Source of the DNA: a virus
Taxonomy: Duplodnaviria > Heunggongvirae > Uroviricota > Caudoviricetes
Virus record (IMG/VR): IMGVR_UViG_2563366953_000006
Coordinates: 1-42,424 of that record
Length of the DNA stretch: 42,424 nucleotides
Direction: 5' to 3' (one strand)
The notes beneath the pieces were generated by a model that made no database searches, was not told the DNA's origin, and saw only the letters and a program-made list of their open reading frames with translations. The translations under genes and the position numbers were made by a program. Shown one piece after another: positions 1,880-39,234 of the stretch. Position 1 is the first letter of the stretch. Each line of letters opens with the position of its first letter.

Positions 1880-3313
1880 TCAAGGCAGCCCAGTCTTACC
1901 AGCATCAGCAGAAACAGCTTTGAGGATATAGGGTTCCAGAAGTCTGGCAACGGCTTCAAATACTGGCACCACAACGGAGTTACCGAACTGCCGATATGAC
2001 TGAGTATCTGAAACCGGAATACGGAATGGTTTCCCTCCAGGTTTTTCAAACCCCATAAGGCGTGCGCACTCTCGGGGAGTCAGCCTGCGTGGTCGACGAG
2101 CCTGGTTACTCTCATTCATAAAGTCAGCCTCTCCCGTTGCCATATCCCAACCACGATCAATAAGAATTTCTGATCCGTCTTTGTGATATCTGGCAGAAAG
2201 TGTGCGTGCAATGCTTTCCTTATTCTCAGGATTGACCAACCCAAAGCCAAAACCATTCCCCTTGGCTGCATGCTTTTTGGCGTAGTTATAAAGGTACTCC
2301 CATAGTTTTGGCGTAAGTATATATTTACTGTCGACTACAGGCTCCAGCAATTCACCAAATGATGGGCGGTGTTCCGGATAAAAACGACTGATATCACGCA
2401 AGGTAAACCCCTTGTGAATATTCAGATCTCGTCTAAATCCGACCAGAACAATGCGTTCACGATGCTGAGGCAAAAAATGCTTCCCATCGATAATCTTTGG
2501 ATCGTTTTTTCCCATTTCTGCAGCATCGGCAACTTCGTAGCCCAGCTCGTCAAGGGTCTCCATAATGACTTTGAAAGTTTTACCCTTATCATGGCTCTTC
2601 AGATTTTTGACATTTTCCAGCACAAAAATTGCCGGTTTTTTTGCTCGTATAATACGTGCCACGTCAAAAAAAAGTGTTCCTTGTGCTTCACATTCAAAAC
2701 CATGCGCACGACCAAGTGAGTTTTTCTTACTAACACCAGCAAGGCTAAATGGCTGGCACGGGAACCCCGCAAGAAGCACATCATGATCCGGCACATGCTC
2801 ATCAATATATGCATAAGCATCCGTTTCCAATACATCGGTTTTATCACTCAGCGTGACTTCCCGAATATCGAGATTGAATTTATGCACCTGTTCATCGTTA
2901 AACCAGTTGGCCTTGTATGTACGCACAGCATCTTTATTCCATTCACTGGTAAAAACACACTGGCCTCCAATGGCCTCAAAACCTTTCCGTATCCCTCCAA
3001 TTCCAGCAAATAAGTCAATGAAGCGGAAAGCATATTCCGGATGGTTTGCAGGTGGTTCTGGTAGCATCTTACGCAGAAGAGACTCTTCTACTGAAGTCAA
3101 CGATTTTGGTAAACACTTGCCATTAATCCAGCGGTTAATGGTTTCACGGCTCCACTCATTTTTTCCGACTTTTCTCAGTAATTCAGCCACATACTTCTGA
3201 TCATAGATTTCCAGCACTTTCTCGATAAGCTTTTTATCATTTTCCTGTCGCAGCTTTTCTTCCGCCTCGGCTTCCTTCAGCAGATGCTGTGCCAACACTT
3301 CAAATTCAGACAT
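1880..3313 (-). CDS. ecoRIIM: DNA cytosine-5 methyltransferase, Dcm / M.EcoRII family
   Basis: Contains [17 protein letters not shown] (motif I), [11 protein letters not shown] (PC catalytic motif), ENVKNL and [10 protein letters not shown]; collinear with Dcm/M.EcoRII. Start placed at MSEFEV (3313), preceded by GGAGG; the ORF track extends to 3355. Confidence 0.88.
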
Positions 3314-3619
3314 AATTCCTCCAAGGGGTCTAATGGGTGAAACTCTATCACTCATTCAACCCAGAAGGAAATGTTTTATCTGGATATTTAAACAGTGACT
3401 ACAACGTAATCTAGCACTGGTGATGCTTTGTTAGGCATAGAGAATCATTCTATATACGACTAATGACAGAAAAACAGCAGACAAGTAGTTTGTTCATAAA
3501 TTAACGCATACTACGTGCCTACGGTTTTCGAGACCGGTCCAATCATCAAACGAAACATAAAATTAGCTCACATTATGAGGAAAGGTATCTTTTTGCGCTA
3601 TGTAAATTCAAAGGGTTAG

Positions 3620-25626: not shown

Positions 25627-26091
25627 TTATTTTTCACACTGACTAGAGATATAGTCCTGCAATGCTCTTATCTGTTTATAACTGATTTCAATTCTCTCTC
25701 TGAGGGTGAAATAATCCCGTTGAGCGGTGTCAGTAAGTCGGGGGGCGGTAGCATCATCCAGGCTGGTGGTAATGGTCGTTGATTGCACTCTCGGGCAACT
25801 AGCGGCGAGGAACAGCCGCTTAGTGCCAACAGCAACATCACGCTGAAGCTGTTCAATAGTTGCTTTAGCATTTGCAAGTTCTCCGGTGTATTTCGCATCG
25901 AGCGCAGAAACATCACGCTGGCGCTGCTGCATCTCAGTAATGGTGGCGTTCGCCTGGCTGAGTTTTTCCTTCGCTTTATCGCGCTGTTCTTTGTAGGCGA
26001 TGGCGTTATCACGATAATGATTAACAGCCCATGATAGGCAGACGATGGTGCAGATAACCAGAGAGGACAGAATCGCAGTTACTCTACTCAT
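25627..26091 (-). CDS. Rz-like i-spanin
   Basis: N-terminal TM helix ([23 protein letters not shown]) then coiled-coil; immediately after the endolysin; contains an embedded +1-frame lipoprotein ORF. Confidence 0.8.
25668..25838 (-). CDS. Rz1-like o-spanin (lipoprotein) embedded in Rz
   Basis: [14 protein letters not shown]... has a lipobox (LSGC) and is proline-rich; fully nested in the Rz gene in another frame. Confidence 0.7.
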
Positions 26092-31227: not shown

Positions 31228-31550
31228 GCTTTCAGGCCTCTCTCATGTAACCAGTGGGTTGCACGCAGCCTTGCGTTTTCCTCACCGGCAAGCAGTGAGC
31301 GGATAATCCCGACCGCCTCGCTGTCGTCGTCCTTCACCGCGGTATGAAGCGTTATCCCCCGGGCCACGCCACGCTTTATCGTGATGACGCCTTTTTTCTC
31401 CAGTGCGCGAAGATGCTCCACCGCTGCATTCACTGAACGGTATCCCAGCATGGTTGCCACCTCCTGATTGGTTGGCGGGAAGCCACGTTCTTTCTGGTAA
31501 GAAATCAGCATATCCAGCACCTGCTGCTGGCATTGAGTTAATGTCGTCAT
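31224..31550 (-). CDS. LexA-type winged-helix DNA-binding protein lacking the peptidase domain
   Basis: LTQCQQQVLDMLISYQKERGFPPTNQEVATMLGYRSVNAAVEHLRALEKKGVITIKRGVARGI aligns with the LexA N-terminal domain; the protein ends after ~108 aa. Confidence 0.65.
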   Translation of the reverse strand: MTTLTQCQQQVLDMLISYQKERGFPPTNQEVATMLGYRSVNAAVEHLRALEKKGVITIKRGVARGITLHTAVKDDDSEAVGIIRSLLAGEENARLRATHWLHERGLKA

Positions 31551-32200
31551 GCCGCCATCTCCCTGACCAGTTTTTCTGCCTGCTGGCGAACCTGCGCCAG
31601 AAACGCCTCACCACATGCCTCAAGTTCATCGCGCCCGATGTAGCTGATTGCCGGTCCCTTCCAGGTCTTGTCGAAAACAGCAATAGCACCAGCGAAGAAA
31701 GCGCCTGTCGGCACCTGCTTCTCATCTTTCGGGATAAACCAGGCAGGCAGTTCAAAACCAATACGCCCGCGAATAAAAGCAATATGATCTGCATCTTCCG
31801 GCCACCACACTTCGCTGGTGGCAGCTTTGATCAGGAAAACATAGCGCCCGCCTTTATCACGCATGGCACTGGCATGTTTCATGATGTAACGCATGCCGGT
31901 GATGTATTGCCCCTCATGCTGACTGGCGCGGCTGTATGGGGGATTACCAAAGGCAGCACCTTTAAGCTCCGCAAGACGTTCTGACCAGTCATGCGCCAGC
32001 GCATTGTCTTCCGCCGTGTAATACGCGGTACATTTGGCGTTATCACCGTCAGTAAACAGATCCAGAACAAACGGGCCAAACAGAGTGTTAATTCCCCAGA
32101 AAATGTTATCCGGCGTGCGCCACTGATCGCCCACTTCCTTCAGTTCATGGGCTGGTTTGTTCCGTAGTTCCACCAGCGCCTGGCAATATTTATTACTCAT
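31547..32200 (-). CDS. Phage DNA N6-adenine methyltransferase (orphan, Dam-like)
   Basis: GNPPY motif (AFGNPPYSRAS); start placed at MSNKYCQ where TAATG overlaps the upstream stop; track start is 32233. Confidence 0.75.
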   Translation of the reverse strand: MSNKYCQALVELRNKPAHELKEVGDQWRTPDNIFWGINTLFGPFVLDLFTDGDNAKCTAYYTAEDNALAHDWSERLAELKGAAFGNPPYSRASQHEGQYITGMRYIMKHASAMRDKGGRYVFLIKAATSEVWWPEDADHIAFIRGRIGFELPAWFIPKDEKQVPTGAFFAGAIAVFDKTWKGPAISYIGRDELEACGEAFLAQVRQQAEKLVREMAA

Positions 32201-32694
32201 TAAGCCCCCACGTAATTCCCTGACAGATACCACTCATCACCCGATACAGCGCGCTTGCTGCTTTTCCGTAAACACTGCTCACGACGCGCCAGAAAATTGT
32301 TTCGTTCTGGCTGGGAGTGGCTTTCACGGAATGCCGCCATCCACACCGTTGCAGCACGACGGTATAAGCCCCTGGACTCCAGTTCTTCAGCCTGGCGGGT
32401 CAGGCACAAAATCACCCGGGGGTCGTTAGTGCCGACATAGAAATTGCGCACAGCTCTGGTTTCACGAACAGATTGTGGTTCCGGCTCCTGCGCTCTCTCA
32501 GTCAGGCGCGGGAAATGTCTGCGTGTATCTCCTTCACAACGGTGAGCCACACGCCCACTCTGACGTAACTTGCTTGCTGACTGCAGAACGCGCTGCCGTG
32601 AGTAACCAGCAAAAGCATCCGCAATGTCTCCGGAAGTACACCCCGGATGGGCTTCAATGAATTTCTGAACTTCATTCAAAAGACTCATAATCAC
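32200..32694 (-). CDS. Hypothetical protein, possibly PerC-like regulator
   Basis: 164 aa, translationally coupled to both neighbours; weak recalled resemblance to PerC family (ELESRGLYRRAATVW). Confidence 0.35.
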   Translation of the reverse strand: MIMSLLNEVQKFIEAHPGCTSGDIADAFAGYSRQRVLQSASKLRQSGRVAHRCEGDTRRHFPRLTERAQEPEPQSVRETRAVRNFYVGTNDPRVILCLTRQAEELESRGLYRRAATVWMAAFRESHSQPERNNFLARREQCLRKSSKRAVSGDEWYLSGNYVGA

Positions 32695-33632
32695 CCCCTG
32701 AATCCTGCCGGGATCTGGCTGTAGTCCACGTTGTCGTAACTGGCTTTGAAGTACGGGTCTTCGCGTTTTTCTGTGTGCGTGCTGACGGACGGCGATAAGC
32801 GCAGGGAAAGCTCATCCCATTTTTCCCGCAACTTCGACGGGCTGAGCACGTTACGGCACCAGAACGGATCGCGGCTGACGCGGCTGTACATCTCGCAGAT
32901 TTGTTTGTGAGTACGACCATCCTGCACACACATCAGGCGAATTTCGTTTGCCCAGGCTGTCCAGTTAGGTTCTTTGGGACGAACCACCTCGCCGTCACAT
33001 TCGGCGGCCTGCTCGTACAGGGCGATGATTTTTTTCCAGAGCCACTGTGCGCAGGTCAAATCATCCTGCGTTCCCCACTGGCGCTTTTTAGGGCTGAATA
33101 CAACCGCATCAGGATGGCGAGTTAAAAAATCCTGTTCATCCGTCTGCGTGTCCGGTTGCGAAGCGTCCGGACGAGAAGTTTTTTTATCTGATGGATCATG
33201 TTTTGATTTTACTGACGGATCCCCGCCAGATTCTGACGGGTGAAAACCCGCTTTTTTGCCAGATTTCGACGCATCAAATTTTGACGGGTCAGATTTTGAT
33301 GCGTCAGATTTTGACGGGTCAGAATCTGACAGTTGAGAAAATGCCGCTGCCTGAAGCTTCGCAACGTTAAGCTGATAAACATTCGACGCATTGCGGTTAC
33401 CCTGGCGACGCGCCTTACGCGTTAACCAGCCTTCTGCTTCCAGCCGTGCGATAGCCGTTCTGACGGTACTCATCCCCGCGCCAATCTGGCGTGCAATGGT
33501 TTCAATTGATGGCCAGCACACACCTTCGTCATTACTGAAATCAGCCAGGCGGGCCATAATTGCCACGCTGGATAACTTCATGCCTGACGCAGCGCAACCA
33601 TCCCATACATAGCCGGTTAATTTAGTGCTCAT
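32691..33632 (-). CDS. Replication initiator (O-like), N-terminal HTH with internal low-complexity repeat encoded by iterons
   Basis: N-terminal HTH-like region WPSIETIARQIGAGMSTVRTAIARLEAEGWLTR; central SDSDPSKSDASKSDPSKFDASKS repeat coincides with DNA direct repeats. Confidence 0.65.
   Translation of the reverse strand: MSTKLTGYVWDGCAASGMKLSSVAIMARLADFSNDEGVCWPSIETIARQIGAGMSTVRTAIARLEAEGWLTRKARRQGNRNASNVYQLNVAKLQAAAFSQLSDSDPSKSDASKSDPSKFDASKSGKKAGFHPSESGGDPSVKSKHDPSDKKTSRPDASQPDTQTDEQDFLTRHPDAVVFSPKKRQWGTQDDLTCAQWLWKKIIALYEQAAECDGEVVRPKEPNWTAWANEIRLMCVQDGRTHKQICEMYSRVSRDPFWCRNVLSPSKLREKWDELSLRLSPSVSTHTEKREDPYFKASYDNVDYSQIPAGFRG
33200..33335. repeat. Iteron-like direct repeats (candidate replication origin) inside the initiator gene
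   Basis: Repeated units of the form GATTTTGACGGGTCAGA / GATTTTGATGCGTCAGA, at least 4-6 copies. Confidence 0.6.
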
Positions 33633-33641
33633 GACCGACCT

Positions 33642-33980
33642 CTATTTCCCTGAATTTACGACGAAACTGTTCGAGCGGGCTGAAGCACTCATGCTCATAG
33701 CCTTCGCGGAGGTAGATAACCCGTTGTGTTTCCGGCTCCCAACGAATGACTCTGACGGGTACTCCGTAGTGATCTTTGAACCAGCGGTTAACTTGTCGCA
33801 AAGGACTGTCTCCTTCTGCCGGTTGAAATCACCCACAGCCCACTCTGCAAAGCTGTGGGTTACAATTTCCCTGTCACCTGGTACATTCACTGCATAGCAA
33901 TATTCCACCTTCGCTTTTCCACCCGGTACAGGAAGCGCAATCAGTTGCGAGCGACGGTAGTGTGTTGTTAAACTGTTCAT
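33642..33980 (-). CDS. Hypothetical early protein
   Basis: 112-aa ORF that exactly fills the gap between the CII-like and replication genes on the early-operon strand; preferred over the antisense ORF 33625..33897. Confidence 0.4.
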
Positions 33981-34534
33981 GCGTTAGTTTCTCCACAACC
34001 AGAAGCAATCGACGCCACGACGCCCGGAGCTGCACACTCGCGGGCGTCATTACTTTCTGAAATGCAAAAGATTTTGTAGACAAGTGCTGCATGCTCCTGC
34101 AGCTTCGAAATTGAGAGATACAGCTCGTCGTTAATTGCTGTCTTCTCATGCGGTTCCACTACACCGTCTTCGATTGCTGAACGAATCTGTTTTGAATAAC
34201 TGCCGATCTGTTCAATGACTTCCAGCAGACGCTGGTTAATATCGGCGTTGTCCACATCCTCGACGTCAGGAAGAGACACAAAGACGCCATTTGCAGACTG
34301 CGCCACAGCATCAGCAATGAAGTGAGTGCCACCAGCACGCTGTAAAACCATTGCCCATCCCAGCGGGAAAATCTGATCGCCATCTGCACGAAGGCGGTTG
34401 AATAAAGCGTTTTCTGTTACATCGAGCCAGTCAGCCGCTTCAGCGTAACCACCCGGCAACGCCGCGATAGTTTTTCTGACAGCTTTCACGTACCACTCAG
34501 GCTGTTTTTCTATTTTCCAGTGATGCTTACCCAC
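33977..34534 (-). CDS. Early regulatory protein, possibly CII-like (CP76 family)
   Basis: 185-aa protein directly downstream of the cro-like gene; family assignment from memory is weak. Confidence 0.4.
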
Positions 34535-34787
34535 GGTTCACCTCCTGTTCCTGTGGTTTAAACCCATTCTGGTTTTGGCTAGATTGAAAACGTGCCGGAT
34601 AAAGAATCTGCATTTCGCTGACTTCACCCTTAAAAAAATTGGCTAAACGTTCTGCAAGCTCGATAGATGGAATCTGCTCCAGCCTCTCAATACGACTCAA
34701 CGTCGCTGGATTGACTTGAACACCCGCAGCAACATGCTGCAAAGTGAAACCATGCGCCTTACGCACATTTCGTAATGGTGATTGCAT
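34527..34787 (-). CDS. Cro-like HTH repressor (XRE family)
   Basis: 86 aa, HTH GFTLQHVAAGVQVNPATLSRIERLEQIPSIELAERLANFF; divergent from the cI-like gene. Confidence 0.75.
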   Translation of the reverse strand: MQSPLRNVRKAHGFTLQHVAAGVQVNPATLSRIERLEQIPSIELAERLANFFKGEVSEMQILYPARFQSSQNQNGFKPQEQEVNRG

Positions 34788-34884
34788 ATGCCCTCCAAAT
34801 ATTGCGCGTTATGCATGTTATTTCACGCAATTATTTTGCGCAAGTTGATTTGCTTATCACGCAATAAAGAAATGTAATAAACGC
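34788..34884. promoter_or_regulatory. Immunity-region operator/promoter region between divergent cro and cI
   Basis: Repeated half-sites TTGCGCG / TCACGCAA / TTGCGCAA / TCACGCAA forming inverted-repeat operators within a 97-bp AT-rich intergenic region. Confidence 0.6.
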
Positions 34885-35577
34885 ATGAACATAGGAAACC
34901 GAGTCAGACAACTTCGCCAAGCGAAGAACATGAAAATCGCCGATCTCGCTGAAGCGATAGGAGTAGATGCGGCGAACATCTCGCGCTTAGAAACGGGTAA
35001 GCAAAAACAATTTACCGAACAAACACTGAGTAATATTGCCAAGAGCTTAGGTGTTGATATTGCTGATCTCTTTACCTCTGCCCACAAAAGTAATACTGTA
35101 TATAAAAACAGTAATAATGAGGATGTTGCGCAGGTGAAGGATGTGTTCCGTATTGAAATGCTGGATATCAGTGCCAGTGCGGGAAATGGCCTTATCCAGG
35201 GCGGTGATGTCATTGATGTGATTCATGCCATCGAATACAGAACTGATAATGCTGTATCAATGTTCGGCGGACGACCAGCCAATCACATCAAAGTTATCAA
35301 CGTTCGTGGGGACAGTATGTGTCCAACCATTGAGCCAGGAGATCTCATCTTCGTTGATGTCAGCATCAATCAGTTTGATGGTGATGGTATATATGTCTTT
35401 GGTTTTGATGATAAAATATACGTTAAAAGACTTCAAATGATTCCTGACAAACTGCTGGTGATTTCTGATAACCAGATTTACCGTGAATGGGGAATTACTA
35501 GCGAAAACGAACACCGATTCATGGTCTTTGGAAAGGTCTTAATCAGTCAGTCGCAAACCCTTAAGAGACATAATTAA
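34885..35577 (+). CDS. CI-like repressor (N-terminal HTH plus C-terminal S24 LexA-like peptidase)
   Basis: HTH at N-terminus (IADLAEAIGVDAANISRLETGK); C-terminal VRGDSMCPTIEPGDLIFVD...YVKRL carries the Ser/Lys dyad. Confidence 0.88.
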   Translation: MNIGNRVRQLRQAKNMKIADLAEAIGVDAANISRLETGKQKQFTEQTLSNIAKSLGVDIADLFTSAHKSNTVYKNSNNEDVAQVKDVFRIEMLDISASAGNGLIQGGDVIDVIHAIEYRTDNAVSMFGGRPANHIKVINVRGDSMCPTIEPGDLIFVDVSINQFDGDGIYVFGFDDKIYVKRLQMIPDKLLVISDNQIYREWGITSENEHRFMVFGKVLISQSQTLKRHN

Positions 35578-39022: not shown

Positions 39023-39234
39023 GCGTGATAAAAACTCATACAGGAATTGTTATCACCCGAGACGGTGAAAAGCGGATGAAATTACATTCCACTGAAACGT
39101 CCTGGGTTGCCGGACGTTGTGAATCCTACGACAAAAAGACTGGTTACCGTTGGGGGGCACCTAACATGCGTCGCCGTCTGCTACTGGACAGCATCAGGCC
39201 AATAAAACAGGTAGCAACCAGGGAACAAAATTAA
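39019..39234 (+). CDS. Hypothetical small protein
   Basis: 71 aa, ATGA-coupled to the upstream gene. Confidence 0.4.
   Translation: MSVIKTHTGIVITRDGEKRMKLHSTETSWVAGRCESYDKKTGYRWGAPNMRRRLLLDSIRPIKQVATREQN

Follow-up and report, generated by a model that had tools for sequence, protein, structure and literature searches.

We analyzed a stretch of 42,424 nucleotides (nt) of viral DNA, IMG/VR record IMGVR_UViG_2563366953_000006 (all of it here called the window), and focused on a replication initiator gene that carries an array of short direct repeats, or iterons. With high probability, this array is where replication of an SfII/SfIV-like lambdoid prophage starts, an origin bound by the initiator that the same gene encodes. 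The gene lies on the minus strand (32691..33632) and codes for a protein of 313 amino acids (aa), as supported by the open reading frame (ORF), Pfam and PHROG matches and the layout of an AlphaFold2 model. The initial annotation of this DNA had placed iterons within an O-like gene, an arrangement known from phage lambda, and we found it here: a C-terminal domain homologous to that of lambda O, an array between the two domain-coding parts, and an AT-rich block after it.

Six iterons and an AT-rich block lie within the initiator gene

Tandem Repeats Finder reported one tandem array in the window, at 33260-33323, with a period of 15 and 4.3 copies (score 86) or with a period of 30 (score 100); arrays elsewhere in the 42 kb scored at most 38. 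A search for GTCARAWTYTGAC with at most 2 mismatches gave 6 matches in 33225-33330 and 4 in the other 42.3 kb, all of the latter with 2 mismatches. The six copies of this dyad-symmetric motif of 11-13 base pairs (bp) span 33226-33329, which corresponds to codons 102-136 and nt 304-407 of the gene, and all six sit inside the ORF between the parts coding for the N- and C-terminal domains. Five are arranged in tandem with a 15-bp period (33259..33329; unstranded, with the minus-strand consensus G-TCARAWTCTGA-C), and their 11-nt cores lie at 33319-33329, 33304-33314, 33289-33299, 33274-33284 and 33259-33269. The sixth, TCAGAATCTGG on the minus strand (33226..33236), is located 33 bp past the tandem block and abuts the presumed unwinding block. 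Within the gene the six cores start at nt 304, 319, 334, 349, 364 and 397, and each 11-nt core is itself an inverted repeat (pairs I3, I4 and I6). The peptide encoded by the iterons, SDSDPSKSDASKSDPSKFDASKS, comprises residues 102-124 of the initiator; the ORF of the peptide quoted in the initial annotation lies on the minus strand, a point not stated there.

Immediately past the repeats, in the sense in which the gene is transcribed, comes an AT-rich minimum. Over 50 bp, the gene is least stable at 33170-33219, with a free energy (dG) of -61.5 against a gene mean of -73.2 (standard deviation 3.7), and the 40-nt stretch with the lowest GC fraction within 2.6 kb starts at 33174 (GC 0.25), so that the AT-rich flank expected of an origin is present. 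These positions fall within a block with conserved synonymous sites (33165..33245), a presumed DNA unwinding element that contains the sixth iteron, two GATC sites and the AT-rich stretch. The GATC sites (33194-33197 and 33218-33221) are 24 bp apart within the AT-rich block and are conserved across genera, and the codons GAT-CCG-TCA (D138 P139 S140) are invariant in a 26-sequence alignment. The window overall has no excess of GATC (145 sites versus 162 expected); what stands out is solely that the two sites in the block are conserved. No DnaA box (TTWTNCACA) was found within 5 kb of the origin, the only matches being at 25630 and 27156, and a promoter scan of 32000-35300 found none. On the plus (antisense) strand, the spacer that separates the fifth from the sixth iteron contains a terminator-like hairpin, CGGGTGAAAACCCG, with a T run after it (33237-33250); the stem of this hairpin is not conserved in relatives.

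The initiator joins a winged helix, a disordered linker and a lambda O-like domain

The initiator matches PHROG 391, 'replication initiation O-like', with an E value of 1.5e-135, and is 98-99% identical to gp41 of the Shigella phage SfIV and to the 'O protein' of SfII. It consists of an N-terminal winged helix, a disordered linker, a lambda O-like C-terminal domain and a tail resembling the C terminus of DnaT. The initial description of the gene as O-like holds for the C-terminal domain, which is homologous to that of lambda O (BLASTP 4e-26; 31% identity over 216 aa, best at aa 183-277). It does not hold for the N-terminal domain: the lambda O N domain is Phage_rep_O (PF04492), which the initiator lacks, and the sole Pfam match of the initiator is an HTH_36 winged helix at aa 23-70.

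An AlphaFold2 model was built from the 26-sequence alignment. The N-terminal winged helix (aa 1-98; 33339..33632, minus strand) was predicted with helices and a beta-hairpin wing at a predicted local distance difference test (pLDDT) score of 64-89, and the helical C-terminal domain (aa 160-280; 32793..33155, minus strand), the part aligned to lambda O by BLASTP, at 73-96. Between them, aa 102-159 (33156..33329, minus strand), the segment encoded by the iterons and the unwinding block, had pLDDT below 50 and no secondary structure, and the C-terminal tail was flexible. The proposal that the repeats encode a linker therefore stands, and some relatives read this DNA in another frame. A Foldseek search of the model against the PDB gave matches for the N domain only, to winged helices of the MarR/ArsR type. 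Such winged helices typically bind palindromes as dimers. Likewise, phmmer against PDB sequences returned MarR-type winged helices for the N domain, no match for the C domain, and no DnaT.

Public labels of close relatives clash, and include 'replication protein', 'O protein', 'DNA replication protein O', 'primosomal protein', 'GntR family transcriptional regulator' and 'helix-turn-helix domain-containing protein'. Among 5426 complete E. coli genomes, 1576 contain at least 80% of the initiator gene and 2725 contain parts of it, with up to four copies in some genomes; in those genomes it is annotated merely as 'helix-turn-helix domain-containing protein'.

Selection acts on the DNA of the linker

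We retrieved graded relatives of the initiator N domain and compared codon usage, synonymous sites, reading frame and copy number. Within the window gene, serine codons are TCA or TCT at 13 of 14 positions in the iteron zone versus 4 of 22 elsewhere, and across eight genes the corresponding counts are 97/108 in the zone versus 52/183 elsewhere in the same genes. In the 81-nt block at 33165-33245, codons at conserved residues are identical to those of the window at 18 of 19 positions in LLS, 23 of 23 in phiNP, 19 of 20 in 733R5 and 14 of 16 in YeP2; in the N domain of the same window-relative pairs, only 34-51% are identical. The fifth iteron of phiP27 (CTTCAGAATCTGGAC) lies in frame 2 and its other copies in frame 0. 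Copy number among relatives ranges from 1 to 10, always in steps of 5 aa (15 bp).

A census of 71 initiator genes from different species placed 319 of 321 in-gene motif matches at nt 270-520. Neighboring matches were 15 bp apart in 211 of 251 pairs and 48 bp apart in 31, the latter being the core-to-core spacing of an outlying copy that stands at the same place as the sixth iteron of the window. The gene flanks contained 63 matches in 669.5 kb, which corresponds to an enrichment of the zone of ~190-fold, and the motif together with its spacing was present in relatives from 64 of the 71 species. Taken together, the codon bias, frozen synonymous sites, change of frame, copy-number steps and census point to selection on the DNA, and the linker owes its amino acid sequence largely to the DNA sites.

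Several database proteins translate the linker DNA frame-shifted (for example '...KKPVLTRQNLGDPSV'). In relatives P0055, P0093 and P0105, part of the linker DNA is read in another frame (SNLTHQNLTRQNLMRRNLAK) and the original frame is regained before the C domain. These cases are either sequencing errors or a sign that the linker tolerates any sequence.

The iteron sequence follows the winged helix of the initiator

Relatives whose N-terminal winged helix carries a different predicted recognition helix (in the window ~aa 54-66, STVRTAIARLEAEG, within 33339..33632 on the minus strand) also have a different iteron sequence, while all four classes keep the 15-bp period. At the 70 loci with the helix ST(V/I)RT(A/T/S) the iteron is cG-TCAaAATCTGA-Cg. 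It becomes GT-TCAGAATCTGA-AC at the 4 loci with STVIT(A/L), TCAA-nnn-TTGA at the 6 with (T/N)TVSAA, and TCAC-nnn-GTGA at the one locus with a more distant N domain (L155). LLS, phiNP and 733R5 have no gene like the PerC-like neighbor of the initiator, yet have the same iteron sites. Because the iteron tracks the N domain while neighboring genes differ, comparison among these loci makes the initiator's own N domain the best candidate for the protein that reads the iterons.

We also noted mosaic junctions in the initiator gene, with shared segments at 32691-32766, 32691-33187 and 33154-33631. The last 76 bp of the gene are common, at 97-99% identity, to the SfV, mEp460, cdtI and Stx2 phages, while the rest of their genes differs. 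The record mEp460_4F5 has only the C-terminal half of the gene in common with the window, and Citrobacter phage phiNP only the N-terminal half and the iterons. With the exchange point at the origin, the N domain and its iterons travel together.

We propose a sequence of events in which each step is conditional. Dimers of the winged-helix N domain would bind the six dyad-symmetric iterons of 11-13 bp. The 15-bp packing of five of them (~1.4 helical turns) would place neighboring dimers on roughly opposite faces of the helix, and the resulting complex would destabilize the AT-rich block next to the iterons (33170-33219), which holds two GATC sites. The lambda O-like C domain and the flexible C-terminal tail could then bring in the replicative helicase.

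The prophage has no helicase loader gene and its initiator carries a DnaT-like tail

The initial annotation had noted no P-like or DnaC-like gene beside the initiator, and this extends to the whole window. Queries of lambda P, four other P proteins, E. coli DnaC, two phage DnaC-like proteins, DnaB and a Stx-phage 'P' gave no homologue of P, DnaC or DnaB in the 42 kb by tblastn, in agreement with Pfam and with the SfIV annotation. What was observed is the absence of genes; with no phage P, DnaC or DnaB gene, helicase and loader would have to come from the host. This agrees with a statement on lambdoid phages that have only O: according to a 2025 survey (PMC12315714), 34 of 314 lambdoid phages encode an O homologue alone, with 'none studied experimentally' and their replication 'not yet understood'. 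The word 'iterons' occurs 0 times in the full text of that paper, and the passages retrieved from it do not mention the DnaT-like tail.

The last part of the initiator (aa 296-313, ...KASYDNVDYSQIPAGFRG; 32694..32747, minus strand) matches the C terminus of DnaT. The tail reads ...DYSQIPAGFRG, and its last nine residues, SQIPAGFRG, are identical to those of E. coli DnaT, SQIPPGFRG, at 8 of 9 positions. Some prophage tails resemble DnaT over ~18 residues (DINAISRPDTTIPPGFRG versus DVNTVSEPDSQIPPGFRG). The ~107 full-length DnaT orthologues retrieved all end in (S)EPDxxIPxGFRG, which in a few cases is extended by AK. This GFRGAK variant occurs in the DnaT of some genera and in some prophage initiators, and the genera did not match among the sequences compared. 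In hhalign comparisons of the initiator with DnaT, the tail alone aligned, over 9-33 columns (E 1e-5 to 7e-4), and neither the DNA-binding domain of DnaT (PF17948) nor its trimerizing N domain was found in the initiator by Pfam, phmmer or hhalign. The initiator thus resembles E. coli DnaT in the extreme C-terminal peptide and differs from it in lacking the DnaT N domain and DNA-binding domain. Since no folded DnaT domain is shared, the annotation 'primosomal protein' is unjustified; the short DnaT-like tail seems to be its sole basis. A separate candidate, DnaT homology of the whole C-terminal half (PNWTAWANEIRL versus PDWQPDADFIRL, BLAST E 0.78), was rejected, as hhalign against three types of C domain aligned only the tail.

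The DnaT-like tail occurs on three unrelated C domains: the lambda O-like domain of the window, Phg_2220_C in LLS, and a third type in mEp460 and ST64B. It is also present at loci L004, L005, L007, L010-L012 and L018-L021 and at ~50 of the loci L102-L181. For the association of tails with loader genes we used a scan of genome contigs; a scan of viral contigs had given 80 near-identical loci (97-99%) and was useless for this purpose. Initiators with lambda O-like tails (...WNTPEGWRDVL, ...NTDWIYGIEEDL) had a Phage_lambda_P gene directly downstream in 4 of 4 look-ups and at 8 of 8 loci of the species scan. Among ~50 loci with GFRG-type tails, 0 had a P gene, and two GFRG-tailed initiators (L020 and L177) were followed by a DnaC-like gene, the same order as host dnaT-dnaC.

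From this pattern of sequences we suggest, tentatively, that the tail mimics the C terminus of host DnaT and is the adaptor by which loader-less lambdoid phages capture the host loading machinery, either DnaC-DnaB or another reader of the DnaT tail. In the mechanism outlined above, ...IPAGFRG, a copy of the host DnaT C terminus, would be the most likely adaptor. Reviews and a 2026 cryo-EM study (PMC13377028) describe the mode of DnaB-DnaC recruitment by DnaT as unknown, and structural work on DnaT used or resolved the protein to ~residue 153.

Several points speak against a role of the tail as adaptor. One review states that no DnaT-DnaC interaction is documented (PMC5778457), and the cryo-EM study proposes the DnaT N domain, not the tail, as the recruiter of DnaB/DnaC (PMC13377028). 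The loci compared are phylogenetically related. Finally, the tail is not the sole solution, as a third, YeP2-like class has neither a loader gene nor a DnaT-like tail. Its members (L008, which is YeP2, at 2501-3517; L112, L114-L120, L133, L150, L151, L161, L165, L167, L171-L176 and L180) are 335-374 aa long, end in ...WNxIWKECxQRxxGxxA and have no P, DnaC or DnaB gene nearby.

A further initiator, at L164 (3777-4679), ends in ...GGTDDDFI and is followed by a DnaC-like gene. This ending recalls the acidic C-terminal tail of SSB, and it may be another initiator tail that copies a host protein.

The same tail could also be read differently. DnaB might not be loaded at the array at all, and the phage might rely on recombination-dependent or PriA-dependent restart replication, with the DnaT-like tail docking PriA/PriB instead of DnaC/DnaB. 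DnaT does work in the PriA-PriB pathway (PMC13377028), and LLS, which is rich in Chi and has a related initiator, depends on host recombination functions (PMC12315714). We nevertheless consider this unlikely, because the conserved architecture of iterons and unwinding element argues for sequence-specific initiation, and because two initiators with this tail have a DnaC-like gene as their partner, an arrangement that mirrors host dnaT and dnaC.

Comparison with known origins

As a probable origin bound by its own initiator, the array recalls lambda ori in its order of elements. In both, the origin lies within the initiator ORF between the N- and C-domain parts, consists of dyad-symmetric repeats, encodes a linker peptide and is followed by an AT-rich region downstream in the direction of transcription, and the C domains are homologous. 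The four iterons of lambda (39034-39118) occupy nt 349-433 of O, just ahead of the AT-rich region. Lambda differs in its N domain, which is Phage_rep_O and not HTH_36; in its sites, four of 18-19 bp at ~20-24 bp compared to six cores of 11-13 bp with a 15-bp period here; and in having a P gene together with an O tail that reads ...NTDWIYGVDL instead of a DnaT-like tail. The comparison with lambda iterons proposed in the initial annotation therefore stands for the order of elements and fails for the period.

Other systems share parts of this layout. Gene 18 of P22 and gene 18 of phage L also have iterons with a family-specific repeat inside the initiator gene, and the origin of phage L contains six imprecise 11-bp repeats (PMC8022706). 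However, these phages have their own DnaB-type helicase (gp12), and their repeats are unrelated (TGTCCAACGGA in L). The O genes of Stx phages, which are lambdoid, likewise contain iterons in variable number (PMC7466680), but belong to lambda-type O/P systems with a P loader. The loader-less phage LLS has an N domain, in gp44, that is 88% identical, carries the same iterons, GATC block and GFRG-type tail, and likewise has a module made up of the initiator alone. Its C domain is Phg_2220_C and not lambda O-like.

The iteron plasmids pPS10, F and R6K have a winged-helix Rep protein, directly repeated sites with a period of ~22 bp and an adjacent AT-rich region. The window resembles them in its winged-helix initiator, direct-repeat sites and adjacent AT-rich region. 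It differs in having no DnaA box within 5 kb, a period of 15 instead of ~22 bp, and sites inside the initiator ORF.

Two observations count against the array being an origin of this kind. The 15-bp spacing differs from that of both lambda (~20-24 bp) and plasmid iterons (~22 bp), and a wrapped O-some of the lambda type cannot be assumed. In addition, the AT-rich block is modest, with a GC fraction of 0.25-0.30 over 40 nt that is equaled by ~1.5% of the 40-nt stretches in the window.

The initiator could also bind the iterons for autoregulation, copy-number control or exclusion of related phages, with the true origin elsewhere. Iterons of plasmids and of lambda mediate control and interference as well (PMC3349717 and PMC4488673). 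That the window has no other repeat array, that the conserved AT-rich GATC block accompanies the array in every case, and that the array stands where ori stands in lambda make this decidedly improbable. Slippage that produced a mere low-complexity Ser/Asp/Lys-rich linker with no DNA function would fit the predicted disorder and the number of 5-aa units, which varies between 1 and 10 in close relatives, but it can scarcely explain why serine codons are nearly fixed (TCA, then TCT), why synonymous sites are frozen only here, why one phiP27 copy is in a different frame and relatives tolerate frame-shifted translation, or why every unit is a DNA palindrome. Binding by the PerC-like neighbor, the CII-like regulator or a host factor is just as hard to credit: both neighboring genes encode DNA-binding proteins, but the iteron tracks the initiator N domain across differing neighbors, and the sites persist in LLS, phiNP and 733R5.

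Gene neighborhood of the probable origin

The minus-strand genes are ordered cro-like, CII/YmfL-like, a small ORF, the initiator, PerC-like, Dam, a protein with a LexA DNA-binding domain, RusA, KilA-N and DUF968, with the cI repressor divergent from this series. The PerC-like gene (YfdN-type; 32200..32694, minus strand) encodes 164 aa, with a winged helix at the N terminus and a PerC/ANR-like domain at the C terminus (Pfam PerC). It is a 'transcriptional activator' in PHROG and yfdN in RefSeq, and is not a helicase loader. Its start overlaps the stop codon of the initiator.

Downstream of it, 31547..32233 (minus strand) encodes a phage Dam (N6-adenine) methyltransferase (Pfam Dam, 1.4e-45). 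In most relatives without a loader gene, the initiator is closely followed by a gene for an adenine methyltransferase, either Dam or MT-A70. Judging from these genes, Dam could methylate the two GATC sites of the unwinding block, and the combination of conserved GATC sites with a methyltransferase neighbor suggests methylation control of the origin.

At the left end of the window, positions 40-402 contain a tmRNA (ssrA) gene with the tag ANDENYALAA, and the structural genes of the window are SfII/SfI-like. These features indicate a lambdoid prophage, which appears to be integrated beside ssrA.

Implications for lambdoid phage replication

An origin inside the initiator gene is known, textbook lambda biology, and the array itself is no surprise. 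Our literature searches found no described origin in SfV, SfII or SfIV and no account of the GFRG tail, and the SfIV genome paper mentions no origin. The present analysis defines the origin architecture of a very common, unstudied replication module. The pattern of tails versus loaders offers a hypothesis for how DnaB is loaded in lambdoid phages that have only O. If it is true, initiator tails would be swappable and would decide the loader, a lambda O-like tail going with phage P and a DnaT-like tail with host or phage DnaC. The pattern also suggests a function for the conserved C terminus of DnaT, which has no documented partner in the literature examined; if the hypothesis holds, the DnaT tail would supply the connection from the preprimosome to DnaB-DnaC that has so far been missing.

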